This document shows positions 5,729 through 33,604 of a stretch of DNA of 64,000 nucleotides, one piece after another; position 1 is the stretch's first letter, and each line of letters begins with the position of its first letter. Below the pieces are notes generated by a model, which was not told the origin of the DNA, did no database searches, and worked only from the letters and a program-made list of their open reading frames with translations. A program made the position numbers and the translations under genes. Origin of the DNA: an uncultured Nitrososphaeraceae archaeon (lineage in GTDB: Archaea > Thermoproteota > Nitrososphaeria > Nitrososphaerales > Nitrososphaeraceae); the NCBI GenBank assembly GCA_963837175.1, contig CAWIMJ010000034.1, positions 32,001-96,000 on the forward strand, in the 5' to 3' direction.

Positions 5729-5792
5729 TTATAATTATTATTACCTACTTTTACGGGTACTTTTGAGCGTAAATTGTGAATGTATATGGATG
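5729..5792. repeat. ~64-bp direct repeat, copy 1 (copy 2 at 6988-7050)
   Basis: TTATAATTATTATTACCTACTTTTACGG...TTTGAGCGTAAATTGTGA.TGTATATGGATG at both positions. Confidence 0.9.
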
Positions 5793-5878
5793 CTATGTCT
5801 CTCTCCCCCTTCTCAGGGTATATATCACGGCCATCCATTGCCCATATACATTTACTGGGCTTCCTCCAACGACACTGA

Positions 5879-6987: not shown

Positions 6988-7050
6988 TTATAATTATTAT
7001 TACCTACTTTTACGGTATTTTTGAGCGTAAATTGTGACTGTATATGGATG
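6988..7050. repeat. ~63-bp direct repeat, copy 2, overlapping the integrase start codon
   Basis: Matches 5729-5792 and ends in ATGGATG, the first bases of the integrase ORF. Confidence 0.9.
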
Positions 7051-7964
7051 GCTTAAAAACACTAGTCAACTCTGGTTCATTCGAACCAACCTTTTACAAA
7101 AATATAAACTTGGATGATATGCTCAAATATCTTTTAACTATTCGAAAGCTTGACAACAAACATGTAAAAGACATAGTGAGTTACTTTAGACGTTTCCGAG
7201 ATCTATTCTTTGGACCTCAGCCTGAGGAGATTCTCAAATTCAGCCCACCTAAAAGAGGATGGATTATACAAGCTATGCGTCATTTCGGTAACTATTATTA
7301 TTATAAAACTAATAATCCAGAATGTAAAGAACTGATTGAGAAAATTATCAATCGATATGGACTAAATATTGGTTTGGATATGCATCAAAGGATTTACATT
7401 GTAGATGACAACTTCGTTAGTAATAATGTTAAGGTTCTTCTGGCAATTCAAGGTGATATAGGTCAAACAGTCAAAGTTGGCTTGTTCACTGGTTTAAGAG
7501 AGGATGAAATTATCTACATTCATAATAAAGAACTATATAGTAATCTCGGAGGTTGTTCTTGTAATAAACTCCATGCAGTCACCAAACCAAATGGTCTAAC
7601 TGTTGTTGTCATCAATTGGTTTAGGGGTCACAAAAAATGCTATTTCACTATTTTACCAACCATCATGCGGGAGCAATTCAGAAACATTCCAAACTTCACT
7701 CATGTAGATATTGATATTGCTCATAAACTTACAAAGAAAATTGCTAATCTTATGTTTGTAGAATTAAGAAAACTACACTATAATGTCATGAGAAGAGTCA
7801 TGGATATGAATGAGGCTGATATCTTGGCTGGTCGTGCTAAATCAGTTTCTGCTAAACATTATGCTATGTATGAGTTGGATAAACTTACAGAGGCTTATGC
7901 TCAGGCATGGAATAAATTTGGAGTAAATATCTCTGAATCAGATGAAATCAACTATAGCATATGA
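7044..7964 (+). CDS. Archaeal tyrosine recombinase/integrase (SSV1-like catalytic motifs)
   Basis: 'GLFTGLREDEI' (Arg box I), 'ELRK', 'DILAGR' and 'KHY' (catalytic Tyr). Confidence 0.8.
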   Translation: MDGLKTLVNSGSFEPTFYKNINLDDMLKYLLTIRKLDNKHVKDIVSYFRRFRDLFFGPQPEEILKFSPPKRGWIIQAMRHFGNYYYYKTNNPECKELIEKIINRYGLNIGLDMHQRIYIVDDNFVSNNVKVLLAIQGDIGQTVKVGLFTGLREDEIIYIHNKELYSNLGGCSCNKLHAVTKPNGLTVVVINWFRGHKKCYFTILPTIMREQFRNIPNFTHVDIDIAHKLTKKIANLMFVELRKLHYNVMRRVMDMNEADILAGRAKSVSAKHYAMYELDKLTEAYAQAWNKFGVNISESDEINYSI

Positions 7965-9577: not shown

Positions 9578-12386
9578 TCAAGCTTCTCCTGGTAAATTGC
9601 GGAGCAATATCTTACTAAGATCTCTTTTTAAAGATCCAAAAAAGGTTGGATCAAAACGTTCCATAATCGGCTTCATAAAATCTTTATTATCAATACGAAT
9701 TGATGTTTTTGTCGTTGCTTTTTTACCGTTTTTGATCCCTATAAAAAGAGATTCTACTTGAAATTCTGGTGCTTTAGGCATAGTTACTACACATATATTG
9801 TTCTGGTGTACAAGCGTATCTTTTCCCAAGTCTCCTGACAAATCTGCAGTATTCATTCCTAACGCAATAATTGCTTTTGAATCTTTAACAGTATATTGCA
9901 TCCTACTTTCAGGCGCAATCGTTTCCGTAAGGTGACCAGCGAAACCTGCAATTTTTTCTACAGCGTTTCTTAATACTGGTTTGACGTTTTTGATTGGACT
10001 ACAAGTTATCTGAATTACTGGAATTTTCTCAAATTTTTTGTTTTCCGCATCATCAATAGATCTAGCGAACGCGTATCCTCCGTAGATAACCGAACTGTAG
10101 TGAACATCTCCTGAAAAAATCACTACGGCGAAAGGATTGAAATTTTCTTTCAGCCACTCCATCAGAGAAGCTCGCTGGCTTGGATTGTTATCGAATAGTT
10201 CCCAGTCGCCTGGATATCTTGCTTCAGGATAAGGATAAGTTGCATCTTGGCCAATAAGGTGAAACGGATGTCCAAAAAAGGGAGTTGGCAGTCCCATTAA
10301 TAAAACAGTGTTTCTGGCAAACTTATGTTTAACTAGCAGGTCCTTAAGTTTTTGCCTCACCTTTGGGCCAGTAAGATTTGCTGATTTGTTGTCTGCGGAT
10401 TGTTTGATATCATATTTAAATCTTGCATATATTTTAGCAATTTGTTCTTTAAGCATAGAACTATAATCTTTACATTTTCTATCAGGTAGAGGAGGATCAA
10501 CAACAGGAAATTCACGAAGTGTTCTAGTGTCAACACAAAGGGCTTTTGGGTTCGAAGCGACCATGAATGACCAGTGTCTTGATAAAATTGCTTTATAGAA
10601 GGATTCGGCATTAGCACCTGGTTTTCCGTTATTTATCATAAGATCATTCAGATGATTTAACATTGATTGTTTGAATGTCTCCTCAAACGTATTTGGATCA
10701 TTTCCCCATCCTTGGAAGATCATGAATGCCGTCAATGCATTTGCAATTATCTGTCTGCCAGGTTGAGTACTTTTTTGTGGTTCTCTCCCACAACGCATCT
10801 AGATTCCGATCATCCGTAACATCATGATCGTCGAAAATCATATAAGTTGCACAATTCGCCATAACCCGACGGCATGCACCTACGTAAAGGGAATAATCCC
10901 AAAGTGTAGGATAACCGTATATCCGAAGTGTAGGATAACCGCCTATTATACGTTTTTTGATTTCATCATCTCTTATACAATATTTATCCCAAAGCTCTTT
11001 AGACCAGACTAGCAAGTACATAGATGCATATTCTGGGAAAGAAAGCAAATGAGCCTCACCATCGTCAGTTGAAAATCCAAACTGACTCGTGGAGTAGTGA
11101 GTTAGATGTTTTCGCCTTGAATATTTTTTAATATCACATTTATCATCGTCTCTCAGGTTATTAGCTGGAATTTCATTCGTTGGAGTAAATTTCCCACCAA
11201 GATTGATCTCCTCATTATAGCCGAAAATATCATAACTAAGTTTTTGAATAGCATGAAAAAGCGGAAGAGCTGCATCATCTGCATATATTTGATCTCCAGT
11301 TAGTATGAGACTTGCTGGTCTTTCATATGTGAGTTTTCTCTTTTCATACATCCAATCATCGAATACTCCAAAAGCGTCCTTCATGGAATCTGGATACTCC
11401 AAATCACCTGACCCTGGACGACGGCAAGAGCCATGTGCTATACTGGTATTTTTCTCCCCTATTATTAGAGTAGGTAGTTGAAATGGTATATAATTTATAG
11501 CTAATTTTAGATCAGAAAGTTTTCTATGTTCAGGTATTTTGTTATAAAACTGAAATTCCACATCATATCCTATTATAGTATCTGTTGGAAATGATCCCTC
11601 TAGTGGATTGACCTCAAATAAGGCCACCCAGAAATTCTTTCCTAACTGCCTAATTATCGTTGTTGGTCTGCTTAAAGGAATCTTATTTAAAATTTTACCT
11701 TCACTATCATAACGAAACATGGTGGTGTATATACCAATTATCTTCTCATTGAGGGCAATCCAAAACCAGACGGAAGTTTTTGTGGCCCTGCGAACTATGG
11801 GGCCAGCAAGCACCAGCGGAAGGTCTTTACTCGGAAAAGAAGGATCCTGAGGCTTAAGAACCGGTGGAGCTATAGGCCCTCTAGAAATTTTGGATCTTTC
11901 GCTCATTACTTTATCACGGAGCTGAAGCCAAAGCGTTTGTAAAGGACAATCTTTAGGATTTTTAGGGTTTGGTACGAGATTATTATTACCTATTAATTTT
12001 CTAAATCTCTGGTTTACTTCTTGTGCAACTTTGGTACACTCTTGTGGCGGGAGGGCTTGGTAAAGCTTTGCCCAGTTTCCAGGTACATACGGTTTTCCTT
12101 TAGTTAATCTATTAGCTATTTCATGTGGTGTTTCATATTCAGTATACTGAATAATTCTAAATGGACTTACTGATTCTGACGAGGCTTCAAAGGGATTAGC
12201 TTCTGACTGCAGAGATGTAGACTCACTTAAATCTCGTATAGGAGAAGTGTAAGATTCTTGTTTAGTCTGCAGCATGTGAATATTAAAAGGACTTTCTGAT
12301 TCTGATTCTGATTCTGATTCTTCTACTGTCCTATTGTTATTATTCCCAAAACTATTATAACTAGGTCTAAAAGGCTCTTTGACCAT
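9578..12386 (-). pseudogene. PhoD-like (alkaline phosphatase D) metallophosphatase with an acidic leader; frameshift near 10771-10777
   Basis: 'AHGSCRRP', 'LTGDQIYADD', 'MIFDDHDVTDD', 'FSGDVHYS'. ORFs 10698-12386 and 9578-10798 join at an A-run. Confidence 0.8.
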
Positions 12387-14801: not shown

Positions 14802-15400
14802 ATGTCGAAAAGAACGTCTTTAGGTTATATCTATTATGCTTTAAAATTATATTCGTCTGGTCTTTCTCTTCGAAAAAGATCTAGGCAGCAGTTATCTATG
14901 CTAATTAAACGAAACCATTTTCTATTTGGAATTGGATTCAGAAATACAAGCCAAAGAAACTATTACAAAACAAAAAGAAGAAAATACAAGATTTATCATA
15001 GATGAAACACTCATTAAAGTTAACAGCGACTATGTTTGGATTTGGATATCAATCGAACCCACTTACAAAACAAATCTTAGCATACGCACTTCATTTGAAA
15101 GAAATATGCTTGTAGCAGAGCAATTTTAAAAATCTTGGTAAAGAATTATGGAAAGTATCCAGTATCAACAGATGATGAAACATGGTATCAATTACAAGCA
15201 TGTAATTTTCTAAAAATAAAGCATCATCTACATTTGCCATATGAAAAAAGTATCATAGAAAGAACCATCCAATACATTAAAGATATAACTGAATACTTTG
15301 ATGATGATTATTTTCCATGTAGAAAAAGCAACTGTAAATTAGGACATATTGTGCATTGGCTAAATTTGTTAGTAGATATGCACAATGAGATGATTCTAGA
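14802..15400 (+). pseudogene. IS6-family transposase pseudogene
   Basis: 'YSSGLSLRK', 'IIDETLIKV..YVWIWI', 'VSTD', 'EKSIIERTIQYIKD' spread over three ORFs. Confidence 0.85.
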
Positions 15401-16320: not shown

Positions 16321-18474
16321 ATATTATTTGGACTTACAAAATCTATTCCCTATGTTCTGTATAGTGGTGATTTTATCTTAATGTAACGTTTAGATTTAAT
16401 TATTATATTTGGATCCATTAACTTAAGCAATTATCTTTGTATTGTTTATTATACTCACACACAGAATAGATTGAACCAGCGGAAGTAAAGAAAAACCCAC
16501 TCTTCAGTAATATATAATATATTAACATATATTATAGTAGAAGAGACGAAATTCAATTATATCAAAGAACACGTCTCCTTATTTTTCTTTTCAAAACCTA
16601 TTCATTATTATTACTGCAGATTTCTTTCATTCTCAGCATAAAAAATTTTATCATTAACTTTTTGGGGTTTAATGAAACCTAGTTTGTTTCAAGTCTTTAC
16701 CATAAACAGCCGGATCAATCAATAACCTGTCACAAGTGACATTTGTCACAGATGGAGGATTTGTAGAAATGAGCCTTCACCACCTAGGGAATGAGCCGTC
16801 TTATTATGCTATGCTACATGACTACATCAAGCCTTCAAGGGAACATGCACGAGTCGATAGGCCTTGGACTCGAAAAGGAGAACTAAAAAGGTTCATAAAT
16901 GTGCAGACTATGCAGCAGTTTTCAGCTACTATGAGGCAAGACTCATACGAGGAGCCTGCATGAAAACACTGAACTGTTCACAAAGTTCGAAGGGGATCAT
17001 GTTCATGACATCGAGCAAACCGTCCCTCAGACGTTGGCATATCCAAGGAAGTCATAAATCAAAACAAAGAGCCCGAACTAATCAAACCTAGTCAGAAATT
17101 CGCGCTGTGGAGTAAATCTGAGAGGCAAAAGCGCCGAGCCGAGGTTTACAAACTACGTTTTGACCACGGAATGTCAGCCGCCACTATGATAGCCCATCTC
17201 ATGCAGGTGGACCAGAACATCAACCATTAACAGATACATAGTGCACCTATACAAGGAGCTCCGCAAGAATGCCTAGAACATCGATTTTTCGTCCTACTAT
17301 ACCCGGCAGATGGTAAGGCCAGAATCCCAACGAGCGCGGCTTGCAATCTATCTAAACGACGTCAAAGAGTGAGATAAGAGGATCATGATAGAGCGCTTAC
17401 TGGTAGATATTGACTTTAGGCTTCTGGCCAGTATCCAAAAGGTGTGGAGTCCGGCAAGATAGCATTCATAAAATCCGTCTTGGTTGATCTCAATGATAAA
17501 GCAAAAAACTGAAGATGAATGACAGGTTCCTGACGCTTGAAACACAGCTTAGACTCAAACCAGAGACATATAATAAAGTCTGGCCCACTATCCAAAAGGA
17601 GGGTGGCGCGAGTTGGTAAAAGCTCATAAGAAAATCGATGGTTAACCTTGCCCCATAAAAGGGGAAGATGCAGAGCTCACTACAATATGAAATGACTATG
17701 GTACCGAGATACTAGGCCATCATGTCCAATACACTAATGATTGGCGTTATGAACCACTATCCAAAAATTACTTACCTAAAGGACTTGCTAGAGAGCGACA
17801 CGCATTACCAGATGACATTAAAAAAATTCCCTCAATGAAGCATTCGCAAACAGATGTCAAAGAAGATTGGTAAGAAAGAAGAATAGCATTACACTAAAGC
17901 CGTTAGGTGATGATGCTTTAAGTTCATACTCAGCTGAATGCAATTAGATCGCTCGATGCCGGACAGTAGTTGTTTTAAGTTGTCCATTTATTTTCGTGAA
18001 TATAGATTTGACCATTTGCCCTTGAAGTTTTCTTCAGGATTTGAAAGTCTAGCTCGGCCCCATTAATCGATTGACAGAGGGATGGCTTTGCCTGGATTTC
18101 CATCAATGCCAGCTCTTCTCTCCTTTTAGCCAGGCAATAGATGTGTCTCCAGATAACTCACCTTTGCCGCTATTGCCCAGCATGTGTACTGCTGTGATCA
18201 TATCTCTCTTGCTTTGAAGTAGAATTGCTTTGATAAATAGACACATAGATTCGACAAACTAACATCATTGCTGAATTATCCGGGTTCACCTGCTCTTTTA
18301 TAGAGAGAGATAGAGACTCTTTCATTTGATAACTCCATCAAATACCTTCCATAGCGTCTGGCTAGTACAGACAAGGTAGTTAAAATATGGAAACCATTAA
18401 TCGGCCGACAACTCTTGGGATAACAAAGGCATTGTCATGGCAGATAGGTATCCGGAGAGGTTGGTTTCGGCAGG

Positions 18475-19779
18475 TCAGCGTGATTGGGAAAGTGTGGGAC
18501 GAACAATTTTGTCCCTTATCTTAAGCCATTCCTGCACCCCACTGAGTGTCTTCCGGTCGGATCGGCTGACCTTTAAGTCCTTGATGCCGAGCATAGAACA
18601 CCATATTGGTGAGTTCTTTAGGATCAGTCTGGCCATTCCTTATCGCTTGAGTGACTGCCAGATTTTCTTGACCTGCACGGATTAACTGGCGAAAACGCTC
18701 GATGAATGTCCCGTACAACCCGCTGGACGATGATGTAGGGTTGACTGTAGAGACGGAAGCAGTTGTAGCAATATTGCCGCCCTGCCGGCGGCAATGCCGT
18801 TGTAAATGTAAATCCAGTCGATGTGCTGATCTTTGCGTAACCAACCCGGGTCCCAACATTGTTTGTCTGTAAGACGGCTTAGTGGCGTAATGTCTTCGTG
18901 TCCAAGGAGGCACGAGCTACGCCACCATGGTTGTTTACTTTTCTTACTTATGTCACAAAGGTTATCTGTATAAAGTGGCCATTTATGTCGTTGTGCGATG
19001 TCCCATGCAAGTCGGGCAACTGTCTCATGTTGTGCCTTAGTGAAACGAAGTCCAGGACGCATGGGTTTTGCAGCAGGATCTGTTATCAGTTCACCGTTGG
19101 GACCCCCATTATATACGCAGGGAACACATTCCACGTGAACATATGTCATGTTTGGGTCGTTATGAAGTGGAATGAGATCCAAGGAGTGCGCGCGACCGGG
19201 CCATCGTGCTCGCCAGAGTGGAATAACCACAGGCATTAGATCACTCTCGAAGCGTCCTTCTTTGATTGAGGCCCACTGATCTTTTGATTTATCAATGATA
19301 TAATTACCTGTTGATTTATCGATGATATAATTACCTTTTTTATCCTCCAGGTAAACATGCCCGACACCCCAAGCCACTTGACGCTCGTTCATTACCTGGT
19401 GTAACTGCTACCCTTCTGTACCAGCCCATCCATTCACGTAATGTGTCCCTCCAGTGCCAGGTTTCTCTCTAGTGCCAACATAGTAACGAACCGCATATTC
19501 ATCGGGAGGTTTGCCAGGCAATTCGCGCTTTAATTGGAACGCCCCCCCTGTAGTATGAACTACAAGGCCGTAGACCTTATCGCGCCAAGGAGTAATTCTG
19601 GGACCATGGCCATTGTGGAGGCCGAGGTCCCGACGTGCTAGGGGAGACAAACCATATTCGAGCTCCCCTTGAGGCGTATCAAATTCAAAACCGCTATACT
19701 CGTCCAGTTCGTTAGTTTTAAGGGAAAAAATTTCTACATCTTCTTCGAGATTAGACATTTGATAACTAACATTTACCAT
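18475..19779 (-). pseudogene. N-acetylmuramoyl-L-alanine amidase (Amidase_2-like) with acidic N-terminus and small C-terminal helical domain; in-frame TAG at 19408-19410 plus frameshifts
   Basis: 'LVVHTTGG', 'THYV', 'HVEC', 'LLGHEDI', 'WDPG'. C-terminal 'ELTNMVFYARH...' continues in a shifted frame as 'QEWLKIRDKIVRPTL'. Confidence 0.7.
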
Positions 19780-20942
19780 CTACTTAAGGAATTTGTATCT
19801 ACAAGGGATAAAATGAGGTAAACCATGATTGATATCTATCGTAGATTTATTGGTATCGTGAGTATGATGGAACTGAAAAGGTATCGTACTGGCGCACAGC
19901 ATATACGTAAAAGGTGTTGAGACGGGGAAAGCTAAGTGATCTCAGAAATGAGGGATTTGGATAGGAATATGGATTGGTTCAATGGAGACATTCGAATCAA
20001 GTTAGACGATGTTTAAGTGATTCTCATATATATGAATAATAAAGAACAGAAAGAAAAGGAAAAGTAGTGAAAACAAAACAATAACTGAATATAGAACACC
20101 AGACAAAAAAGATACTGATTTAATCTTTGCAATTTATCAAGACACACAGGTGCAAAATCATTTCCTAGCAAGACCGACGAATATCATAGTGAAAAGAGAT
20201 TTTATTTGCTACAACATAACATATTTACTAGAATATGCATAAGCTGTTAATGAATGAAATTTTCTAACTTAAGGTGTTCAACAATGAAGGTTCCGTTATT
20301 CAGGGAGATGTCATAAGCGCTGTATCCAAGCCTTTCTTTAGGATAGTACTATTGCACTGAATACAAAGGGACAATAATTGTTGACGTACAAAATAGATTT
20401 GTTAGTTTTGATGAATTTATAGATGGGTTTTCCAACTTTTGAAATGATGTATGCTACAGCTAATGATGGTCGTGGTAGAACTCTCTTCCATAGTTCAATT
20501 CCACCAGTAAATACAGTTTTAAAGGTATGGGAAGAGGCAAAAAGAAAAATTTACGCCATTGCATGGATTTAGTTATTTTGCAAGGCAATATTTCTGCAAT
20601 AAATCAGAATATATCGCCTAACGATGTGCTAATTCTGTTAGCCTATAAAAAGTGAAACGTATAAAACTAAACGGCCGCAGCAATCTTCAAACCAATATTC
20701 AATTAACTATAGTGTGTAGTAGATTGTAACAATCAAAGCAAATATAATATTCCATAAAGCAAAAGGTTGTAAGGTAAGAATACAAAGCAGTATATCTACA
20801 TACATATACATACTACAGATCTGAACATTTAAACTCGTATTACTATTGTACTATAGAAGTTATACTCTTGCGTTCATAACAGACAAGGATCTTTGAAAAG
20901 TCAGTTAAATAACTTGAAATATCTGCTTGACGGCATTAGCCT

Positions 20943-22067
20943 ATGAAAAATCTCATTACTAAAAGTAAAGGAGATCCATATAACGAAAGATTATTTTTTC
21001 GATACTACCCTTTTAATAAAATCACATATACGAAAATTGAAAGGTTACCTCAGTCTAGACCTAATTATGCACAGTATGCCTTTAGTCTTAGGATAGATAC
21101 AGAATCAGAAAATACATTTCCATTTAAGAAAATAAATTACATTCGTAGTGAAGCGGATTCCTCAACGATGTATAGTTATCCTTCTAAACAGTCTACTGCC
21201 GGCTCACCCTTGCCTGCTTCGCCATTATTATCATTAGGTACGCTGAGAGTTATGACAGAGCAATACGGCCTGCCCGAGAGACTCCGTTTCGCTTATAAGT
21301 TTACAGCAGATGATGCCCTATGGACAGCGCGATTTATCTTAGGTGAGGCTGGTGGTGACGATAATGCAGACAATCATGCAGTTATTTGGGCTATGTTTAA
21401 CCGCTATGCCTTTTTTACCCACTATGGTAGTCCATGGGGTGGCACATACAAAACATTTTACAGTTATTTAAGAAGTTACTCGACACCATTACAGTCGCCA
21501 CTAAATAGTTGGGCGGCAGCACAGCGTGTAATGAATCGTCCAGATTTTGTAAGGTTTGGTGGTTACTATACGGGAAAGAAGGTCCCAAAAGCATGGCGGG
21601 ACATCATCCCGATTGGTCAGGCCGGGATGTTCCTTAGACTCCAGAGCACTCCTTGGCATAAATTACCAGAAAAGGCCAGGAGGGTAGCAGAACAAATAAT
21701 GAAAGGTAATATTTCTAACCCAGGAGTAGGGGTTGCAACTGAATTTGCTCATACGTTTGTGATACTCAGGCAAAATATGCAAAACCTAGCAAAAGAACAA
21801 AATAAAAGAAATCCTGCTTCAAATATTGACATAAGTAAAATAAAACCTAGTCTTCAGGAGTGGGAACAGTTCAATGAAAAATATAAGAAAGGATGGAAAT
21901 GGATTGGTCATGTTTCAAATCTCCACCAGATGTCAAAAAACACCTTTTTCAAAGATATGCGTCCCATTCCTAGTGATATACGTAAAAGACTTTATTCAGA
22001 TTTACCATCAGAAGTAGTTCAGAGTACTCCCGCCGTAATCTCTTTCGAAAATACTACTTTTAGGTAA
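20943..22067 (+). CDS. Putative cell-wall hydrolase (SleB/Hydrolase_2-like) with 'PFKKIxY' leader
   Basis: 'LWTARFILGEAGG...AVIWAMFNR' matches the SleB-type catalytic Glu helix (LARxIxGEAxG...AVxxVxxNR). Intact ORF, no signal peptide. Confidence 0.6.
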   Translation: MKNLITKSKGDPYNERLFFRYYPFNKITYTKIERLPQSRPNYAQYAFSLRIDTESENTFPFKKINYIRSEADSSTMYSYPSKQSTAGSPLPASPLLSLGTLRVMTEQYGLPERLRFAYKFTADDALWTARFILGEAGGDDNADNHAVIWAMFNRYAFFTHYGSPWGGTYKTFYSYLRSYSTPLQSPLNSWAAAQRVMNRPDFVRFGGYYTGKKVPKAWRDIIPIGQAGMFLRLQSTPWHKLPEKARRVAEQIMKGNISNPGVGVATEFAHTFVILRQNMQNLAKEQNKRNPASNIDISKIKPSLQEWEQFNEKYKKGWKWIGHVSNLHQMSKNTFFKDMRPIPSDIRKRLYSDLPSEVVQSTPAVISFENTTFR

Positions 22068-23236: not shown

Positions 23237-23968
23237 CTAGGTCACCAGTGATGGCATCTCTTTCATATGTGTCTTGACTTTTTTCTTGTACTCTTGCTGC
23301 ATTGGTTGTTGTTCTTGTACTTGTTGTCCTTCTTGTAGTATTTCCTTGTTTAGTTGCTGTTCTGGTTTCAGTTCCTGCGGCTTTGGTTGTTGTTCTTGTA
23401 CTTGTTGTCCTTCTTGTAGTATTTCCTTGTTTAGTTGCTGTTCTGGTTTCAGTTCCTGCGGCTTTGGTTGTTGTTCTTGTACTTGTTGTCCTTCTTGTAG
23501 TATTTCCTTGTTTAGTTGCTGTTCTGGTTTCAGTTCCTGCGGCTTTGGTTGTTGTTCTTGCTGTTGTACTAGAACATCTACTCCTTCCGCACTTATTTCT
23601 TCAATTTTGTCAGTTCCTTCCCACACATACTGCCAACTACCTTTTCCTGCATCATAAATTCTAATGATTTTTAATGATGCTTCCTCATCTAGTTCTTTTA
23701 ATTTTATAGATGACGTGTTGAGTTCACCTACTGTTACAAATTCTTCATCTGTACTATTTTTAAGAGCTAGAATCTTTCCTGTATCGAAATGGAATTCAAT
23801 ACATCGATAAAGACCTTCTATTGGATCATTTCCGGTGGACTGAATATTAACACTGCCTATAGAGGGATAATCTAATGAGATCTTAGACCCTTCTGTTACT
23901 GTAGGCGCAGGTCTTCCTCCTTTCCTTTCATTTAGAAATTTAATGTGAAGTGTGGATTTAGATACCAT
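23237..23968 (-). CDS. Hypothetical protein with a Q/E-rich 27-aa tandem repeat; last gene of the operon
   Basis: 11-bp gap to the upstream gene, with GAGGT before the ATG. Confidence 0.7.
   Translation of the reverse strand: MVSKSTLHIKFLNERKGGRPAPTVTEGSKISLDYPSIGSVNIQSTGNDPIEGLYRCIEFHFDTGKILALKNSTDEEFVTVGELNTSSIKLKELDEEASLKIIRIYDAGKGSWQYVWEGTDKIEEISAEGVDVLVQQQEQQPKPQELKPEQQLNKEILQEGQQVQEQQPKPQELKPEQQLNKEILQEGQQVQEQQPKPQELKPEQQLNKEILQEGQQVQEQQPMQQEYKKKVKTHMKEMPSLVT
23302..23560. repeat. 81-bp tandem repeat x3.2 (QEQQPKPQELKPEQQLNKEILQEGQQV)
   Basis: Identical units start at 23302, 23383 and 23464, with a partial unit at 23545. Confidence 0.95.
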
Positions 23969-23979
23969 TTATAATACCT

Positions 23980-24861
23980 CTATGTAGTTTGGGTTGGCAG
24001 AGGTCTACGTCTCTGGGTCAAGGCAGTCTGGAAGAAGTCTACACCGGTAACCTGATACCATGTGCTTGACAGCTCTTTGAAAAAGAGGGAATCATCGTAT
24101 AACGATGTTGCCGCCCTAATATTCCATTGCGTTTGCTCCACCCTGTTAAGGAATACTTCCATTCTTTTTGCGAGTATGAAAAGATACATAGACTCTTTTG
24201 CCACAGGCACTTTCAGTCTCTGTCCTAGTTCTATTAATCGTGAATTTCTTCCTTGTGACCGAATATTAAGCCTCTGAACTATAAATTTATCATTGTCCAA
24301 CCATTGAAGTAAATCCTGAAATGCAACGGCCCAATAGGAAGCTATATCTTCAATTTCATTGTAGGTTCGATTTATCAACATCTTTTGAAAATCATCTAAT
24401 AATTCGGCAAGAGCACTAGGATTTGATAATTTCTCAACGGTAATTTGCTTATCTAGTACTCCCTGGGCTATGTTAAGCATTATTGATTCAAAGGTCTTGT
24501 TAAATTGTCCATTATATGCTTGTACCCTTTCGAAATTATTTTCCTTGCCTCTAATGACGTATCCAAACATTCTCCAATATGCATTATATCTTAAGCGTTC
24601 TAGATCTAGATCTCGAGTGATCGATGACGATGGCATAGGAAAGATCAAATTTGCTGTCTCCTTTAGCCCTTCTATCAGATCACAATCGTCTTTTCTATTG
24701 AGCCTAAGAACATCATCCGAAATAAAAAATGACCTCAATAAGACTCTAAAAACTTCAACTATTCCAGTAGACTCAATAAAGTATGAGTAAATCAAATGTC
24801 GCCTATTAGAAGGGCATATAGCAGCATTATTAGTCGTTAACTGTGTATTGCTATAACTCAA
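23980..24861 (-). CDS. Conserved-looking helical hypothetical protein ('HLIYSYFIEST...RYNAYWRMFG')
   Basis: Intact 293-aa ORF with ATGA overlap with the upstream gene. The motifs recall uncharacterised bacterial proteins (from memory, unverified). Confidence 0.75.
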   Translation of the reverse strand: MSYSNTQLTTNNAAICPSNRRHLIYSYFIESTGIVEVFRVLLRSFFISDDVLRLNRKDDCDLIEGLKETANLIFPMPSSSITRDLDLERLRYNAYWRMFGYVIRGKENNFERVQAYNGQFNKTFESIMLNIAQGVLDKQITVEKLSNPSALAELLDDFQKMLINRTYNEIEDIASYWAVAFQDLLQWLDNDKFIVQRLNIRSQGRNSRLIELGQRLKVPVAKESMYLFILAKRMEVFLNRVEQTQWNIRAATSLYDDSLFFKELSSTWYQVTGVDFFQTALTQRRRPLPTQTT

Positions 24862-26300
24862 ATCGGTAACCCCCCATATGATCGAGCCAATCTTATGAGA
24901 CCTCCAGGCCTTCCTAACTGATTGTCTAAGCTAGACAGATTTCTTTCATAAGTAGCGTACTCCAATTCTAATCGGGCAGAAGAATTGGACTGGTCAATAT
25001 TTTGGTTTGGCCCTCCTGCTAAAACTACTGACGGGCCGCCTAGGCTTCCTGGAAACATGGCATCAAAATTTACACCCTTAGGCGGGTTTCTTCCAGATGC
25101 AAAATCAGGTATTTCTGAGAATTTTTGTTCGTAGGTCAATATCCACCATATGATGAAAAGATAATCAAACCAATTATCATTATCATACTTTAGCCATGAA
25201 TCAGTTGTTGCCAGAACCTGCGTATCCAAGCCTCTTAGACTTCTAAAAGTGTTTATAAAAATGCTAGGTAATGGATTATTAAGTACATTTCTTAGATCAA
25301 TCAATCTTTCTTGCCTTATAGCGCCGCGCAAGTAATCTATTACAGTATCTAACTCGTCAGCGAAAAGGTCTTGCTGACTCGTAGACGGTATAATAGTTTT
25401 GAATGAGCTTTCGATCGATGGCAATTGTTTTTCAATATAATTGATACCATCTGGTGTACCAGCATTTAGAGAAAACAAACGACCCCATATGTCACGGATG
25501 CTATTAAATACCTCTAAATTGAAACCACCAGAGCTATCATCCTGCACAAGATCAAATAATTGATGAAATATGTTTTCCAATCCAACCTTTCTAATTATGT
25601 CATCAGCATCAGGTGCTAGCGGGTCATCAACACATTGTCCTGTTGTTGGATCTTTATGCTGTCCTGGTGGACATTCTACTGACGGAGCCTGTGGCTGACC
25701 TCTAAGAAGTAGATCATCTACAATTGTTATCTCATTATTATCTTCGTAGTCATCATATCGTGGATCGGATATTAATAGATCAACATATATGTTAGGTTTT
25801 ACAGGATCAGGTACAGGGATGTTGCCAATGCGAAGTACTATATTTTTCAGGATTTCTTTTACCTCATCTTGGAGTGGTATACCTGAGCTAGCCTCTTCCA
25901 AATCATTAAGAAATTGAAGCGCTCTAGTATTCCTTCTTGCTTCTTCCAGACCCCTTAGGAAGCGTGGGTCTGAATGTTCTGGAAAATTATCCACTATTTG
26001 TCTTATGTCCCTATAATTAGGAGATAATTCATAAAACCTTGTCGGAAAAAGCAGTGAATATGCCCAAATGCTGTGCAACAGTTGAGCTATTCTAAAATTA
26101 GTGTATGCAGTTGCAATATTCTTATCCTCGTAAATTTGTACAGTAAAAGCATAAACGGTATTATTAGCCCTTTTTTCCTGCAATGGAATAGTGATTTGAT
26201 TTAGGGTACCGCATGGACACGAGCTGGCTACACGCTGATTAGGGCAAAGTTCGAGGATGATCTGCATTTTTGGATTAATATCATTCCTCCAATCAATCAC
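24858..26300 (-). CDS. Hypothetical protein, acidic, with an internal 'CPPGQHKDPTTGQC' loop
   Basis: 480-aa ORF tightly linked to its neighbours (13-bp gap, 4-bp overlap). Confidence 0.75.
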   Translation of the reverse strand: MIDWRNDINPKMQIILELCPNQRVASSCPCGTLNQITIPLQEKRANNTVYAFTVQIYEDKNIATAYTNFRIAQLLHSIWAYSLLFPTRFYELSPNYRDIRQIVDNFPEHSDPRFLRGLEEARRNTRALQFLNDLEEASSGIPLQDEVKEILKNIVLRIGNIPVPDPVKPNIYVDLLISDPRYDDYEDNNEITIVDDLLLRGQPQAPSVECPPGQHKDPTTGQCVDDPLAPDADDIIRKVGLENIFHQLFDLVQDDSSGGFNLEVFNSIRDIWGRLFSLNAGTPDGINYIEKQLPSIESSFKTIIPSTSQQDLFADELDTVIDYLRGAIRQERLIDLRNVLNNPLPSIFINTFRSLRGLDTQVLATTDSWLKYDNDNWFDYLFIIWWILTYEQKFSEIPDFASGRNPPKGVNFDAMFPGSLGGPSVVLAGGPNQNIDQSNSSARLELEYATYERNLSSLDNQLGRPGGLIRLARSYGGLPI

Positions 26301-26313
26301 AACAGAAATACGC

Positions 26314-26778
26314 CTATAACTTATAGGTTCTTTTTACGATTGCGATACGACGTGGTGGATTATTATTAGGATCTAGAAAAACTACGTCTGAGTCTTTGTC
26401 TATCCAGCTTTCATCGGATGGAAATATCCAGTCATATTTTTGAGCAGATATCCTATAAAGGATTTTCGCAAGACTCTTAAATTTTCTAATCTCTGCTTGG
26501 TTGTTTAAAGGGTTGAAGAGAGAGATTAGATCTAGTGAAGCTAACATGGGTAGTCCAATAGAAAATTGAGAATTACCGTTGGCATTACCAAGCAGATACG
26601 GGTCATCAATGGATTCAATCTCTTTACGAAGAGTACGCGCTGACTGTAGAATTTCATAATCTAATGCTATATACTGGATCAATCCTTGTCTCATTATATG
26701 GTTAATGTGTCTGAATTCCTCTGACCCTCGGTCGTTTATGCTATCAATAAAACTTCCTCCATTCATAGTAGAGCTCAT
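26314..26778 (-). CDS. Hypothetical protein
   Basis: 154-aa ORF preceded by a GGAGGT Shine-Dalgarno-like sequence. Confidence 0.7.
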   Translation of the reverse strand: MSSTMNGGSFIDSINDRGSEEFRHINHIMRQGLIQYIALDYEILQSARTLRKEIESIDDPYLLGNANGNSQFSIGLPMLASLDLISLFNPLNNQAEIRKFKSLAKILYRISAQKYDWIFPSDESWIDKDSDVVFLDPNNNPPRRIAIVKRTYKL

Positions 26779-26996
26779 TTTATTTTAACCTCCAATATTT
26801 GAACCTTAAATGATTCATTGAAAGATGGAGATGATGATTCTGCAGAAGATGAAGGGAAATCAGTTTCTAGTAGCTGTTGTTCTTGCTCAGATTCTCTGTA
26901 GATTATTTTTTTAAATGGATAAACCTCACTTTTTCCAGATTCAAAATATTCATTACTTCCATAGCCGCTGTTTTGAAAACGGGATCCTCTTTCCAC
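26775..26996 (-). CDS. Leader-only 73-aa peptide, a copy of the N-terminus of the 31572 protein
   Basis: 'MERGSRFQNSGYGSNEYFESGKSEVYPFKKIIYRESEQEQQLLETDF...' is nearly identical to the start of 30541-31572. Confidence 0.55.
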   Translation of the reverse strand: MERGSRFQNSGYGSNEYFESGKSEVYPFKKIIYRESEQEQQLLETDFPSSSAESSSPSFNESFKVQILEVKIK

Positions 26997-27035
26997 AACA
27001 ACGTAACTGTGTGCAACTATATCAGTTTTTTTCTG
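26807..27035. repeat. 229-bp direct repeat (upstream region plus leader), copy of 31383-31611
   Basis: Near-identical from TAAATGATTCATTG to ATCAGTTTTTTTCTG. Confidence 0.95.
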
Positions 27036-27181
27036 AGATCTATTTTCTTAATTGATATTCTTCACATAGGTCAGTTAGAGCGAATATTGAGTGTTTTAGG
27101 TTTTCAATAAACAAATAATTATATCCCAAAAAATGATAACAATAAAAGGATGGTTAGTAATAAGTAGCAATCAACCTCATA

Positions 27182-28489
27182 TCACGCAATCTTCGCTCCT
27201 CCTAGAGCTAGAGACACTAACCATTTGTACATCTGTTCTATAATCCAGTAATGCGACCTTCCACCAAACATCTGTATTAAACGGAAGCCGAGCAAGGCAA
27301 CAATAGGATGATTAACAAGCATTTTGGCATCGACAGAGAAATTAGAAAAGTCTTTGCCTAAAAACTCCCTTAATCTTGTAGGAGATGAAAAGTGCCAAGG
27401 TAAAAGCATGTCTAGACTTTTACCAGAAAAAGCCTTCATTTTAGTTCTAGAAATAGCATTGCATATTACAGGTAGCAAAGGTATTGAATCGGTTATGACT
27501 TTTGATGCTTCAGCACCTCCAGCACTGATGGGATATAAAATAGACAAAACCCTATCTAAATCATCCCACGGTCCTCTGCCATATGCGATTTTACATGCAC
27601 TGATTCCAAGCATCAATCTGATTATTCCTGCTGGATGAGGATCCCCTTGAATGACTCTCGCGATCCTACGAGCACTGCCTGCAACAACCTCATAAAGTCC
27701 AAGTATTGAGGCAATATTACTTTGATGTAGAGAGTAAAAATCAGCGGCAATTTCGCTTGCCCATGATTCCCATAAATGTGCTAAATATTTCGGTCCACCA
27801 GCGGCTAGTATACTATTGTATAGTAATTCACCTAGCTCTTGGTTCCAGTTTGTTATGTGTGCAACCTGATGACCACATTCATGTAATATGGAAGTTAGCC
27901 TCGGAAGAGGAATAGCGGAGCGAACTACCTTAATAACTGCCGCAGGGTTTGTATTGGAATCCCATAAATAAATTCCAGCTTTAAGAATAGAAGCTCCTTC
28001 TCCTCTGTCTTGATAGCAAATAACAGTAGGAACTTCATGACCTAATGGTTGCAGTACTTGCTGTAAGCTAGCATACGCTATTTGATCACATCCTCTGAGT
28101 AGCATTCCCATATCACGCTCTGAACGTGTATGAAGCAAATCTACGTAATATTCGAAAACTTGCTCAGTACTGAAGTAATGATCTCTGACACTTTGTAAGT
28201 TTGAACGGAAGAGAAGGAGTCCTTCCATATTTCTGATGTTAGTGAATTCTTTTTTTAACTCCGCCAGGTGTGCCTTCAAGCCTGCGGTTCTGGTTTGAAA
28301 AGATCTTTCAATAGCCAACCTTTGTTTATTACCTAAATGCCTTCTAGAGGCTTCTGAGACATTAGCTATGGGGTTGACAAGGCCATCCACTGCTACAGTT
28401 AAGCTGTTCAAGGATAATCGTTGCAAAAACAAACAGTTGTTAAAATCCTTCTCTATAACATTAGAGCCCTGAAGTCTGCTGCTGCTCAT
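27182..28489 (-). CDS. HEXXH-motif putative zinc metallopeptidase-like protein
   Basis: 'SILHECGHQ', downstream 'WASEIAADFY' (third-ligand ExxAD pattern) and 'DPHP'. Confidence 0.7.
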   Translation of the reverse strand: MSSSRLQGSNVIEKDFNNCLFLQRLSLNSLTVAVDGLVNPIANVSEASRRHLGNKQRLAIERSFQTRTAGLKAHLAELKKEFTNIRNMEGLLLFRSNLQSVRDHYFSTEQVFEYYVDLLHTRSERDMGMLLRGCDQIAYASLQQVLQPLGHEVPTVICYQDRGEGASILKAGIYLWDSNTNPAAVIKVVRSAIPLPRLTSILHECGHQVAHITNWNQELGELLYNSILAAGGPKYLAHLWESWASEIAADFYSLHQSNIASILGLYEVVAGSARRIARVIQGDPHPAGIIRLMLGISACKIAYGRGPWDDLDRVLSILYPISAGGAEASKVITDSIPLLPVICNAISRTKMKAFSGKSLDMLLPWHFSSPTRLREFLGKDFSNFSVDAKMLVNHPIVALLGFRLIQMFGGRSHYWIIEQMYKWLVSLALGGAKIA

Positions 28490-28500
28490 GCCCCTTCTAA

Positions 28501-31500
28501 TTACAGTCTATATCCTGGTAATGGTTCTATAGGTGATAAAGTGATAGATGACAAGAGTCTTGGGAGATTCCAAGCCAGCGATGCAATTGTCAACCTTCGG
28601 AGATTGGATATAAAACCACTAGGCAGTATAAGGCTCGATGTAAGCGTTATCCCATCTGGGTGAGCAGATATGCTAGATATTCGTGCAGCTATCTTTCCAA
28701 TGCTTCTGTTCAAGCGCCTTATCACCAATCCAAGAATCAATGAAACTATTTGCTTTGATATCCATGAGGGTATTTTCAGTCTTCTCAGCTGCTTATACAA
28801 TATGTTGGATCCTAGCGTCTTTATAATATCAGATACTGACTTGTTAAGATCTGCAATCATTCTGGTTCTTGCCACGCTCTTAACACTACGTATCGTAAGA
28901 TCATTCAAATATATTCTGAGTTCAAGTCTAGTTCTATCAAATCGTATACTAATGTCATTGCTTCTCACAGCTCCCTTGTCTGGCAAAGGAGCAGAAGGGG
29001 TTTCCTGCATTGGCCTTCCTACAGGCCTTAAAATTTTTACGAAGCAATAGTTTCTCCAAGATGGATCATATCGCAGGATCGATGGCCTTAGTTTACGAAT
29101 TCTTCTGCGTCTTGATAAATATGGGTTATTTAGCAATAATCCTGCAGCAGTAGGAGTCAATGGTATTATTTGGTCTATATGCAAAGCACTCATTCCACCA
29201 ACATAGTCGCGAGCAATCATAGCCAGCCTAGTTCCGACCGGCAGACTTTGGAAAACACGTATACTCACACGAACAGGTGTTGTACCATCCCAACCTTGTG
29301 TCTTACGTAAGATATCAAGTAACGTAGTTCCTCCAAAGCTACGTACACGTGAGGCTAAAGTTGGATACAGGGTTAATTCGGATCTTTGAGATAAAACCTT
29401 GTATGTTTTTCGAGGAATCCACATAATATTAGCTGGGATTCTTCTTCTAGACACAAATTCTTCACGTAACGCTTGGCCTGGAACATTGTCTTTGATAGAT
29501 TCTAGAATAGACTCCTGAACATGAGCCTCCAATACTTGGTCTTCTCCTTCCAAAATGGATTCTGGCAGCGCTGCCTATCCTCTCGACTGATTCTGTCACA
29601 ATATTTGCTATCGTTTCTGCTACTAGTCTATTTTGATTGGGTAATTCTCTTGGGTTTTCTAAAGAGAGTAATCGAAGACCAGCATCTGCAATAACGCGGC
29701 TGAGGGGATTAGCAAAATTCTGGCCGATAAGTGGTTTTAATAACTTAGCAACAAGTTTCGCAAGAAAACCCACTACCCGCTGTCTTCCAATGAGTCTTAT
29801 TCCTATTCTTAATACCGGAAGAAGAGCAGGAGCAAACTCCTGTGTAAGTCTTTGAAGATTAGGTGGATATTCGCTTACTAAACCATTAATAAAATTATTG
29901 CGAGCCTCATTTACGACAAGGGCTTCGTTTACACTTCCAACAAACTCCTCCTCCTCACTTTCCGCTTCAGGAGTATAATATTCTGGAGTAAAGCCTGAGG
30001 TCTGAGCTTCAGGAGTATAATATTCTGGAGTAAAGCCTGAGGTCTGAGCTTCAGGAGTATAATATTCTGGAGTAAAGCCTGAGGTCTGAGCTTCAGGAGT
30101 ATAATATTCTGGAGTAAAGCCTGAGGTCTGAGCTTCAGGAGTATAATATTCTGGAGTAAAGCCTGAGGTCTGAGCTTCAGGAGTATAATATTCTGGAGTA
30201 AAGCCTGAGGTCTGAGCTTCAGGAGTATAATATTCTGGAGTAAAGCCTGAGGTCTGAGCTTCAGGAGTATAATATTCTGGAGTAAAGCCTGAGGTCTGAG
30301 CTTCAGGAGTATAATATTCTGGACTAGCTTTCCATCTCTGCAAAGAGCTCTCTTTCAAAATCTCGTTCAAATTCATAGACCTGCTGGAATTCATGTCCAT
30401 GATATAGTTCTTCTTCCGCTTCACCAGTAAAGCTCTCATTATAGATATTCTCATCTTCATCTTCAAATTCTAGTTCTGTTTCATCCAGAGTTTCAGCACG
30501 CAATACGTTTGAACCGGTTTCTGCTGTTTCCAACTCGCTTTCAGATGGTGGCGTAGTAGGCGGTTGTTCTACTGGTGGTTGTTCTACTGGTGGTTGTTCT
30601 ACTGGTGGTTGTTCTACTGGTGGTTGTTCTACTGGTGGTTGTTCTACTGGTGGTTGTTCTACTGGTGGTTGTTCTACTGGTGGTTGTTCTACTGGTGGTT
30701 GTTGGTACTGGTGGTTGTCCATAACCAAGGGCTCCGAGCGCCTTCTGAGCTATAGCACGATATTGTGGTGGAATATATCGCAATCCTAATCTAAGCACTT
30801 TTCTCACTAGAGGTCTAATACGACGCCCAATTGTTCCAAGTATTCTTCTTAGAATCAACTTAACAGCAGCTGATCCTATCACACTCTTAGCAACACTAAT
30901 GCCCTTCCTTGCTAAACTGAGACCTTTCCCTAAAACTCTTTTTGCCTTTTTCAACCATTTACCCAGAAATTCCTCAGGCTGAACTGGTTGAAATGAGTCA
31001 ATGACACGTTTGGCAGCTTCGTATTCCATTTCAGGTTGTATGTTGGACTGAACATAATTAGAAAAACGTTCAAGCTCATTCTGAATATTTCTCACCGTTC
31101 CACCATAGGTTACTTCATAGAATTGATTGAACATATTCTCGAAATTAGGATTTCTGAGGACCTCTTCAAGCTCACCACCAGTTCCTGTTGTATGACTTAC
31201 ATAGTTAGTAAACTTTGATTCAGCTTCACTTGCCAGCTGTACAAGTGACTGTTCAAATTCATGATCATGTACTTGGTTAGAAAAGAGTTCGAATTCAAAT
31301 TCTCGATCTATCATCTGATATTCTTGTGCTTGTTGTTGTTGTTCTGTCTCACCTGTAGTTATCGACATATTTTCTGTACCAGTAAATGATTCATTGAAAG
31401 ATGGAGATGATGATTCTGCAGAAGATGAAGGGAAATCAGTTTCTAGTAGCTGTTGTTCTTGCTCAGATTCTCTGTAGGTTATTTTTTTAAATGGATAAAC

Positions 31501-31572
31501 CTCACTTTCAGCAGACTCAAAATATTCATTACTTCCATATCCGCCGCTTTGAAAACGGGATCCTCTTTCCAC
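28501..31572 (-). CDS. Single ~1020-aa protein (acidic leader, cationic amphipathic helices, tandem repeats) split into four ORFs by three 1-bp insertions
   Basis: Removing one base near 30705, 30331 and 29575 gives continuous reading 'GYGQPPVQQPPVE', 'EMEASPEYY' and 'ERIAALPESILEGEDQ'. Confidence 0.7.
29964..30323. repeat. 42-bp perfect tandem repeat x8.5 (TPEAQTSGFTPEYY)
   Basis: Unit GGAGTATAATATTCTGGAGTAAAGCCTGAGGTCTGAGCTTCA, no spacers. Confidence 0.95.
30562..30718. repeat. 15-bp tandem repeat, about x10 (QPPVE)
   Basis: Unit GGTTGTTCTACTGGT. Confidence 0.95.
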
Positions 31573-32104: not shown

Positions 32105-33604
32105 GTGGCTATAATAATAATCTTTAACTCTACTTCTTGCTTAACGCCACTGTTGATTGGTAATATAGATCGTTTGGTTGATTCCCAAATGTATAACCTT
32201 GTCTTGGACCTTCAGAAATTAATTCGCCAGCCTAGCGTTTCTGCAAAAAATCATGGTTTGTTAGAGTGTGCGTATCTTGTCTTAACCGTAATGCAAAAAG
32301 CAGGAATAAAGGCTCAAGTATTGCACCTCGAAAGTTCCAAAAATGCAGCTCCAATTGTTTATGGAGAGGTTAGATCAAGATCAAATCCAAGATCAAAGAC
32401 AGTTTTATTTTACAATCATTATGATGTCCAGCCTGTAGAGCCCTATGAACTATGGAAAGGAGATCCATTCGGTGGAAATATCAAAGATAATAAAATTTTT
32501 GGCAGGGATCTTCAGATGATAAAGGCGAGCTCATCACTAGAATAAAGGCAGTAGAGTACTTACTTAAAGAAACTGGAGATGTGCCTTGCAATATAAAATT
32601 TGTTGTAGAAGGAGAAGAGGAAATCGGGAGTATTCATCTTGAAAAGTATCTTTCACAATTTGCCAAGAAATTTTCATGTGACGCGATTATCTGGGAATCT
32701 GGATATATTGATGCAAAAGATCGACCTATTATAGGCCTTGGAACAAAAGGGATCTTATATGTAGAACTGATATCAAGAGGACCCTCTATCGATGTTCATT
32801 CAAGTCTAGCAGTTTTAATAGAAAATCCTGCATGGCGTATCATAAAAGCAGTTAATACATTGTGGGATGATTCAAAAGCTCAGATCCTGATAAAAGACTG
32901 GTATAAAGAAGTACGAGGATTTACTCCTGAGGAGCTCTCTTATTTTCAGACAGCCACTACCCTTTGATGAAGACGGATTCAAAAATAAATATGGCATAAA
33001 TAGACTCGTCGCAGATGCAAGAGGGACTAAAATCAATTTAGCGTTGATGGGAATGCCAACATGCAATATTTCTGGTATAACTTCTGGCTATACTGGTAAA
33101 GGTCTAAAAACAGTTATCCCTTCTATGGCCAAGGCAAAGATTGATTTTCGGCTTGTTCCAAATATGAGTCATGAAAAACAGTTTGAACTACTAAGAAATC
33201 ATCTTTATGAAAAAGGTTTCCAAGATATTACGGCAGTCTTTATTCATGGAGCATCATCGTCTAGAAGCCCACTGAATCATCCTTTTGTAATACAGATAAA
33301 GGAGTCTGCTATGAATAACTTTGGTGCTATGCCAGTTATTCATATGTCATCGTCTGGTGCAGGTCCCATGCACATATTTGTTAGGACATTTGGAGTTCCC
33401 TGTGTTTCTATTGGTTGCACTTACATATTTTCTAACATTCATTCTCATAATGAATATGCAAGAATGGACTTGTTGAATAGGACTACAAAATGGATCGCAA
33501 ATATAATTAAGAGATTTGCAAATTCTTATAACAAGTCGAAAATTGAATCGAGTGTCTTATCTGATTTGGTATCTGAAGAGTTAGGCATCTGGAAGAACTT
33601 TTAA
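32105..33604 (+). pseudogene. M20/M25/M40-family metallopeptidase (DapE/ArgE-like) split into three ORFs
   Basis: 'FYNHYDVQP', 'DDKG' (shifted frame), 'EGEEEIGS', 'DVHSS', 'HSHNE'. Confidence 0.85.

Follow-up and report, generated by a model that had tools for sequence, protein, structure and literature searches.

A bacterial-type effector cluster with variable, partly murein-directed cargo in an ammonia-oxidising archaeon: a possible tool against bacteria

The stretch of 64,000 nucleotides analysed here (the window) spans positions 32,001–96,000 of contig C34 in the genome of an uncultured ammonia-oxidising archaeon of the family Nitrososphaeraceae (genome G000). It carries four sequences of peptidoglycan-hydrolase type, namely an Amidase_2-like gene, a SleB-like gene, the stump of an SLT-type gene and a DUF2272-like gene, in and around a cluster of four unannotated genes termed A, H, C and D. 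A reading of the sequence alone had taken them for four horizontally acquired enzymes, serving either as antibacterial weapons or for the use of bacterial necromass. The sequences themselves were borne out by open reading frame (ORF), Pfam and fold evidence at each site, but they are neither separate acquisitions nor independent enzymes. They belong to a single conserved cluster of several genes, whose exchangeable cargo has an N-terminal leader in common. At least three of the four hydrolase genes, plus a fifth gene for a PhoD-like protein, appear to be cargo of this one bacterial cluster. We put a probability of about 0.5 on the reading that the archaeon gained a polymorphic effector cluster of bacterial type by horizontal transfer, that the murein-hydrolase genes are its cargo and that it is used against bacteria.

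The core cluster occupies positions 23,980–31,572 on the minus strand. Gene A (28,501–31,572, −), present as four overlapping ORFs, encodes a protein of about 800–1,000 amino acids (aa) with an acidic N-terminus bearing a leader motif; strongly acidic blocks alternate along it with strongly basic, cationic amphipathic blocks, and tandem repeats occur. Gene H (27,182–28,489, −) encodes 435 aa and is a putative zinc metallopeptidase with an HExxH motif. Gene C (24,858–26,778, −) is split into the parts C1 (26,314–26,778) and C2 (24,858–26,300), while D (23,980–24,861, −) encodes a protein of 293 aa. D is followed by a repeat-rich ORF of 243 aa (23,237–23,968, −) at the position that is taken by cargo in other loci; it had no homologue among the compared cluster loci. 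In both A and this ORF, peptide units of 5–14 residues are repeated perfectly in long tandem arrays, and the repeat units of A are unlike between the window and the complete genome G171 of the same archaeal family (locus L050, 9,219–12,182). Upstream of the cluster there is a ParB-like gene (35,417–36,286, −; Pfam ParB_N and HTH_ParB). No Pfam, NCBIfam or PADLOC family matched A, H, C or D, and NCBIfam and PADLOC gave no match for any core or cargo protein tested.

The SleB-like gene (20,943–22,067, +) is intact and encodes 374 aa, consisting of a disordered leader followed by a SleB-fold domain, here called domain X. Neither the window protein nor two bacterial homologues matched any Pfam family even at E ≤ 10, and sequence and profile searches of PDB chains with domain X returned nothing meaningful. 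Judged from 87 database homologues, the C-terminal ~250 residues constitute an unannotated domain. In the AlphaFold model the predicted local distance difference test (pLDDT) is above 90 at residues ~90–370, and residues 1–81 are disordered. Aligned with VIA-align, the model of domain X matched the SleB catalytic domain 4fet_A with Z 8.6 and a root-mean-square deviation of 3.0 over 120 of 122 residues; 4f55_A came second with Z 8.5, and the following chain reached only Z 3.8. Foldseek also ranked 4fet_A on top, but weakly (E 0.74). According to these models domain X has the SleB fold and would be an unannotated family of the murein-hydrolase type. Residues E135, N153, R154, Y179, S180 and T181 are invariant among 33 sequences. 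An exhaustive phmmer search with domain X yielded 211 clusters at 50% identity, 179 of them at E ≤ 1e-10, and the proteins concerned reach 2,015 aa in length; in bacteria the domain is fused to M23, VanY, M15, Amidase_2, DUF2272, M74 and PG_binding domains.

For a test of conservation, the neighbouring ORFs of the window served as queries against 41 genome loci that had been found via domain X. All 41 are bacterial and belong to Streptomyces, Nocardioides, Acidobacteriota, Chloroflexota, Bacteroidota, Myxococcota, an anammox planctomycete, Methylobacter and Cupriavidus. H was found upstream of domain X, on the same strand and 2.1–7.3 kb away, in 34 of these loci. Four of the seven loci without H have at most 2,037 upstream bases and one has an opposite-strand match at the locus edge; in the loci L008 and L010, 8–10 kb upstream of domain X contained no H match. 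D is present in 11 of the 41 loci and in G171, and parts of A were detected in three to four bacterial loci by tblastn and in ten when the G171 protein was used with phmmer. Together A, H, C and D form a conserved cluster. The database homologues of H number more than 1,056; all are unnamed and lack Pfam domains, and they span many bacterial phyla as well as Methanosarcina and ammonia-oxidising archaea, including proteins of Methanosarcina thermophila, Nitrosococcus oceani and Nitrosomonas nitrosa. The residues H203, E204, H207, E246 and D250 are invariant among 36 H sequences. With the H model, Foldseek and VIA-align returned only generic helical-bundle matches confined to residues 1–123 and nothing for the catalytic part. 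A protein atlas placed H and D only among unnamed bacterial clusters, with Peptidase_U49 and M48 at 0.77 as no more than a lead. A comparison of the window with locus L054 gave a dN/dS of 0.23 for H and of 0.22 for the C-terminal portion of A, which, together with the core in two further genomes of the family and the grouping of domain X with two low-GC relatives, favours maintenance in the archaeal lineage. Parts of C, D, H and A are also matched by 90–99% identical contigs of a rhizosphere RNA library; transcription is hinted at only weakly by this, because such a library can contain DNA.

Metagenomes were then scanned with the H profile, which gave 492 relatives; 80 loci were kept, 76 with an H ORF and 31 with at least 3.5 kb of downstream sequence. 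The order in these 31 H-selected loci is H, a small ORF in some of them, D, and large ORFs. From each locus a maximum of two ORFs that follow D and measure ≥200 aa were taken, 44 in total, and scanned with Pfam. The scan recorded PG_binding_1 (6), Trypsin (6), Amidase_2 (5), PLDc_2 (4), Amino_oxidase (2) and SLT (2), with M23, GH25, S8 and PhoD once each; some of the second ORFs are plainly unrelated housekeeping genes. An [S/T]-P-F motif occurs within the first 70 aa of 20 of the 24 first large ORFs after D, in 13 of these in at least two copies, compared with one of 63 control ORFs on the opposite strand. It is likewise present within the first 150 aa of all 35 A-like ORFs, usually in two copies ~26–30 residues apart; an A-like ORF was absent in three of the 38 loci with sufficient upstream sequence. 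The leader in the window is a variant of this motif and is common to A, domain X, the SLT stump and the PhoD-like gene. The latter (9,578–12,386, −) comprises two overlapping ORFs (562 and 406 aa) with an acidic N-terminus and three x-P-F motifs. Over their full lengths, these ORFs share 51% and 45% identity with a 927-aa ORF after D in the metagenome locus L056, which matches PhoD weakly (E 6.9e-8); the two window pieces themselves had no Pfam match. A shared N-terminal leader joined to interchangeable enzyme domains is thus seen with domain X, with SLT (the stump and the intact metagenomic relative P0086) and with the PhoD-like gene.

The remaining hydrolase-type sequences are tied to the cluster to different degrees. 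The Amidase_2-like gene (18,521–19,779, −) is interrupted and ends in a small helical domain at its C-terminus. Its ORF at 18,682–19,392 (−) matched Amidase_2 (PF01510) with E 3.9e-4 and 21.2 bits, below the cut-off of 26 bits, while a homologous bacterial fusion protein (L039) reached 48.5 bits. Across 163 aa the window ORF shares 49% identity with Nocardioides genes located directly upstream of domain X. The small helical domain was also found in effectors of relatives. As a general feature of the system it was rejected, since only one of 24 metagenomic cargo ORFs has the motif. The SLT-type stump (2,053–2,291, −) consists of a leader fragment (2,205–2,282) followed in another frame by a 47-aa SLT piece (2,053–2,196). 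The piece covers positions 11–43 of the 117 in the SLT profile (PF01464), leaving the domain incomplete, at E 3.5e-4 and 20.6 bits against a cut-off of 21.3 bits. The leader fragment is 68–69% identical to the leaders of the relatives P0002 and P0086, its motif has just two occurrences genome-wide, and in P0086 the same leader is joined to an SLT domain. The DUF2272-like gene (39,743–40,867, +) is intact and encodes a papain-like protein of the serine type. It scored 24 bits (E 4e-5) against PF10030, whose cut-off is 27 bits, and this family is precomputed on 13 of 19 of its database homologues. W167 and S168 are at least 90% conserved and H206, H278, D280 and G296-G297-N298 invariant among 20 sequences. 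The gene is tied to the cluster by neighbourhood only; for this gene, for H and for domain X alike, an ENA contig of 112,682 bases is the source of a relative. PDB sequence searches with the amidase piece and the DUF2272 profile gave nothing meaningful. Amidase_2, SLT and DUF2272 are matched below their cut-offs, and the SleB-like protein is recognised by fold and not by Pfam. The amidase and DUF2272 genes had been thought richer in guanine plus cytosine (GC) than their background, and indeed they have 47.8% and 47.4% GC, compared with 37–41% in the core genes and 35.0% in the window.

The H profile matched four of 401 genomes of the class, namely G000, G171 (E 6e-108), G272 (E 2e-66) and one weakly; the same-genus genome G351 had no H match. 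The core is thus present in three genomes of one archaeal family. G171, a complete single-contig genome of 3.43 Mb, has the order ParB, an intact A of 987 aa, H, a fused C of 538 aa, D, an APOBEC-like deaminase (27.9 bits) and an FGase-like gene; its ParB stands directly before A and is 54% identical to that of the window. In G272 the order is a short A, H, an ORF of 435 aa and an ORF with a hydrophobic stretch. The FGase-like gene next to the cluster was recognised in G171 by a weak Pfam match and in G272 by eye (L052, 16,340–17,152). The G171 locus also has an M14 carboxypeptidase gene upstream of the cluster; the genes noted in L050 lie at 5,053–6,597, 16,588–17,487 and 17,657–18,445.

Horizontal acquisition from bacteria, as the sequence-only reading had it, is well supported by these distributions and by phylogeny. 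Domain X was absent from 300 other genomes of the class except for one match of 17 bits. A tree of domain X with 38 rows was computed, to which 36 of the 41 loci were supplied (L017, L021, L031, L035 and L044 were left out), L045 was dropped for a stop, and the window domain together with the relatives P0002 and P0003 was added. These three, all low in GC, group in a single clade (100/100) with a long stem, which stands beside the anammox sequence (97/91) and is nested inside bacterial diversity. The closest bacterial H proteins belong to other phyla than the closest relatives of domain X, so that core and cargo have different histories. Among 2.9 million viral contigs none had an H relative and one had a weak domain X match, and an origin as a phage module was rejected on this basis. 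The borders of the island did not emerge from DNA comparison with G351, which gave scattered matches without synteny.

In the mechanism that we propose, the core would recognise the acidic leader bearing one or two [S/T]-P-F motifs, both on A and on the cargo. H would most likely remove this leader, so that the cationic segments of A are exposed and the enzymes set free in active form. These products would then attack the bacterial envelope, with A, as a supplier of membrane-active peptides, and phospholipases acting on membranes, and with the amidase, the SleB-like and SLT transglycosylases and the M23, GH25 and DUF2272-type enzymes acting on murein. Ammonia-oxidising archaea of this kind make no murein. 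Because of this, murein-directed cargo could act only on bacteria, and the cluster would therefore serve antagonism of the archaeon towards bacteria. That H cleaves the leader, that the products leave the cell and that they act on bacteria are steps which we infer from sequence; antibacterial use is plausible. A more far-reaching proposal is tentative and rather unlikely: A, H, C and D would form an undescribed, widespread machinery for handling or releasing effectors, which uses a bipartite [S/T]-P-F leader and no known secretion system to deliver enzymes that destroy envelopes, and which soil ammonia oxidisers captured to kill bacteria.

The state of the genes bears on this reading. In the assembly, A is present in four ORFs, C in two, the amidase in three and the PhoD-like gene in two, with a break near 10,700–10,800. 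Between about 21.6 and 31.6 kb, parts of the stretch are matched at ≥99% identity by short-read soil contigs of three other studies; contigs reaching this identity numbered 22/22 for X7, 20/32 for X1 and 25/48 for X3, all from soil runs of other studies. Insertions or deletions relative to the window were located exactly at frame breaks, at 30,704 and 30,325 in X1, at 29,574 in X20 and at 26,321 and 22,021 in X7. With the three differences in A applied, one open frame of 1,049 aa results instead of 369 aa, and omission of one base at 26,321, as in X7, makes C a single frame of 641 aa. At 22,021 a one-base difference makes the final residues of the window domain X differ from its relatives; applied, it provides the C-terminus typical of the family. 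The breaks at 22,021, 26,321 and 30,704 may be assembly errors or very recent mutations, because the contigs carrying these differences are otherwise identical to the window. Elsewhere in G000, two of 40 conserved genes are split over frames in comparison with G171 (contigs C41, 28,542–30,498, and C1, 3,738–5,787); the assembly is therefore not free of such breaks. The region of the amidase (18.0–19.9 kb) was barely covered by short-read contigs, and what little cover there was had unlike ends.

Several observations weigh against an outward, antibacterial use. Besides the splitting of A and C, the amidase frame is broken by an in-frame TAG at 19,405–19,407 and at least two frame changes, the SLT gene is reduced to a stump, and the window domain X gene lacks a helical domain of ~71 aa that is present in its relatives P0002 and P0003; at a loose end in an X1 contig this domain is seen to be retained in other strains. 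The DUF2272-like gene has no clear leader and is 8 kb distant from the cluster. The peptidase role of H is indicated solely by its invariant HExxH and glutamate residues, and a complex prediction of H with the domain X leader (residues 1–98) scored 0.00, which gives no indication on binding either way. Nor did an export route for the cluster proteins come to light: none has a segment resembling a transmembrane one, no signal peptide was noticed by eye (no dedicated test was run), and Phage_sheath_1 was absent from G000, G171 and G272 (91%, 99% and 96% complete), while a control search found it in three of 14 genomes. In addition, the low-GC loci carry cargo directly after D that is not murein-directed, namely the deaminase in G171, the PhoD-like protein in L056 and the protein with a hydrophobic stretch in G272.

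These same features would suit a module of identical origin that is self-contained and acts inside its producer, its murein-directed cargo being dead freight; we regard this as possible, at odds clearly below even. It could be a protease-triggered suicide or abortive-infection device, in which A is holin-like and hydrolases, phospholipases, proteases and deaminases are the executioners, or it could serve conflict of archaeon against archaeon. On either version, wall hydrolases would have no use in an archaeon and would decay. The lack of transmembrane proteins, of an ATPase and of signal sequences to the eye fits action within the cell, as do the low-GC cargo and the state of the window genes, where domain X is moreover inverted and shortened. 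Set against it are the intact domain X and SLT versions with the leader of the archaeal lineage in P0002, P0003 and P0086, with invariant residues kept, the absence of any PADLOC match, and cargo types that are typical of extracellular enzymes (L-amino-acid oxidase, trypsin, GH25 and PG_binding). Some of the seeming decay may moreover stem from assembly error, since short-read contigs that otherwise equal the window lack a number of the interruptions. On another reading, the archaeon would have acquired secreted hydrolases one by one and would use them to digest bacterial necromass as a source of carbon or nitrogen. This would agree with its lack of murein, with life in soil, shown by carriers in soil metagenomes of about 10 studies, and with a poly-gamma-glutamate-hydrolase-like gene nearby (6,238–6,915). 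We consider this improbable: scavenging becomes less likely because the same core carries deaminase, phospholipase D and proteases as cargo, the leader is common to genes that sit in or beside one conserved cluster, and the Pfam results of the window showed no genes for muropeptide uptake or catabolism. Of the two uses that had been suggested from the sequence, necromass has thereby lost ground, and for the weapon we still infer no more than plausibility.

There is a very small probability that the contig is a bacterial contaminant or a chimeric join in the binned genome. G000 (3.81 Mb, estimated completeness 91.5%) is an assembly of 58 contigs with an estimated contamination of 3.2% (3.24%), and the GC-rich cargo genes might point the same way. 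But GC is 32–36% across all 58 contigs and C34, with 193 kb at 33.9%, is like the others. Multi-copy transposase-type elements of the window are common to the same-genus genome G351 at 75–93% identity and a TrkH fragment at 91%, C34 genes are 58–61% identical to counterparts in G171, and the core with ParB recurs in that complete one-contig genome. The nearly identical short-read contigs of three other studies argue in the same direction. Archaeal AmoA in G000 scored 393 bits, with no match in 14 control genomes. From AmoA, uniform GC and the elements and genes common to same-genus and same-family genomes it follows that the host is an ammonia-oxidising archaeon, which upholds the archaeal nature supposed for the contig and makes its contamination by bacterial DNA unlikely.

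The surroundings of the cluster are rich in insertion sequences (IS; 3,527–4,341, 36,754–37,362, about 14,900–15,400, about 44,500–45,600 and about 46,550–46,920), among them an IS240-type DDE transposase and a transposase of IS4/5 type that is spread over two ORFs. Several of these elements occur in 10–20 copies in G351 and G171, and no synteny with G351 was detected over 1–20 kb or 31–51 kb of the window. An SSV-type "archaeal phage integrase" gene lies at 7,044–7,964 (+; weak Pfam match, E 5.9e-5), and a partial second copy of its C-terminal part (2,387–2,672, +) adjoins the SLT stump; the copies may mark old integration events of mobile elements. The peptidase M20 gene (32,105–33,604, +) is split into three consecutive ORFs, with a DNA match of 1 kb at 71% in G351, and is either another broken gene or another assembly indel. 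The window further contains an extremely cysteine-rich ORF of 256 aa (4,611–5,381, +; GC 47%) without a Pfam match, and a flavin-dependent halogenase-like gene (49,764–50,816, +) close to a tyrosinase gene (52,374–53,495, +), the counterpart of which in G171 is 58% identical. Scans of the whole window for tRNAs and Rfam families gave no match.

Ammonia-oxidising archaea are usually seen as slow-growing chemolithoautotrophs without weapons. A maintained antibacterial system, if true, would alter the view of how they compete with bacteria in soil. On the bacterial side there is a result in its own right: a core of four genes assigned to no family, a leader with a simple motif and a cargo of wall hydrolases, phospholipases and proteases make a testable candidate for a new effector pathway. 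Domain X would add a murein-hydrolase-type family with fusions to seven or more known hydrolase families, and the cargo of the cluster is also a source of lytic enzymes.

Polymorphic toxin systems, such as those of type VI, type VII and contact-dependent inhibition, combine a conserved N-terminus with interchangeable C-terminal toxin domains. The cluster resembles them in its common N-terminal region, in the cargo swapped between lineages and in the differing nearest relatives of core and cargo; unlike them, it has none of the known trafficking domains or machines, and its core belongs to no Pfam, NCBIfam or PADLOC family. Phage holin-endolysin cassettes pair cytoplasmic wall hydrolases lacking signals with a membrane-active partner. 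Their logic is close to that of a module acting inside its producer, but the window cluster has no holin-like transmembrane protein, and the viral contigs searched differ from it in holding no H and only one weak domain X match. In the literature searched, supplementary tables apart, we found no description of an A/H/C/D cluster. To our knowledge no activity is known for any DUF2272 member of the branch to which the window protein belongs. This protein departs from the DUF2272 standard in its Pfam score below the cut-off and in ~200 N-terminal residues outside any family. PMC10318531, in the portion that treats DUF2272, places the family in the NlpC/P60-CHAP-amidase group, with serine replacing the catalytic cysteine. 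The window protein, which has close known counterparts in amidase effectors of the Tse1/Tae type, retains the expected serine (S168) and H278.

With the SleB/CwlJ lytic transglycosylases domain X shares the catalytic fold by its two best structural matches and an invariant glutamate near the start of the domain. It differs in having no sequence match to Pfam Hydrolase_2 and in being about twice the SleB core (240 residues, ~120 of them aligned), and with its 211 clusters it forms a family of its own apart from SleB/CwlJ. The same fold is employed as an antibacterial effector in T6EC3, a type VI secretion effector for which the relevant part of PMC11148199 reports a glutamate essential for toxicity. 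The nearest archaeal parallel is provided by Woldo and Danwoldo of Halogranum salarium, modular peptidoglycan hydrolases described by Strock et al. 2025 (PMC12352652). The main text of that paper contains neither "Nitrososphaer" nor "Nitrosocosmicus", and "Thaumarchaeo" appears in its reference list only. As characterised in that text, its enzymes are single secreted proteins with a wall-binding domain, and 32% have Sec/Tat signals. The window proteins have, by Pfam, no PG_binding, LysM or similar domain, while their bacterial homologues often carry PG_binding_1 or PG_binding_3, and they appear as cargo of a four-gene core with a common leader. Both sets nevertheless represent murein cutters of bacterial origin in archaea that lack murein, patchily distributed and horizontally gained, and for both an antibacterial use has been proposed.

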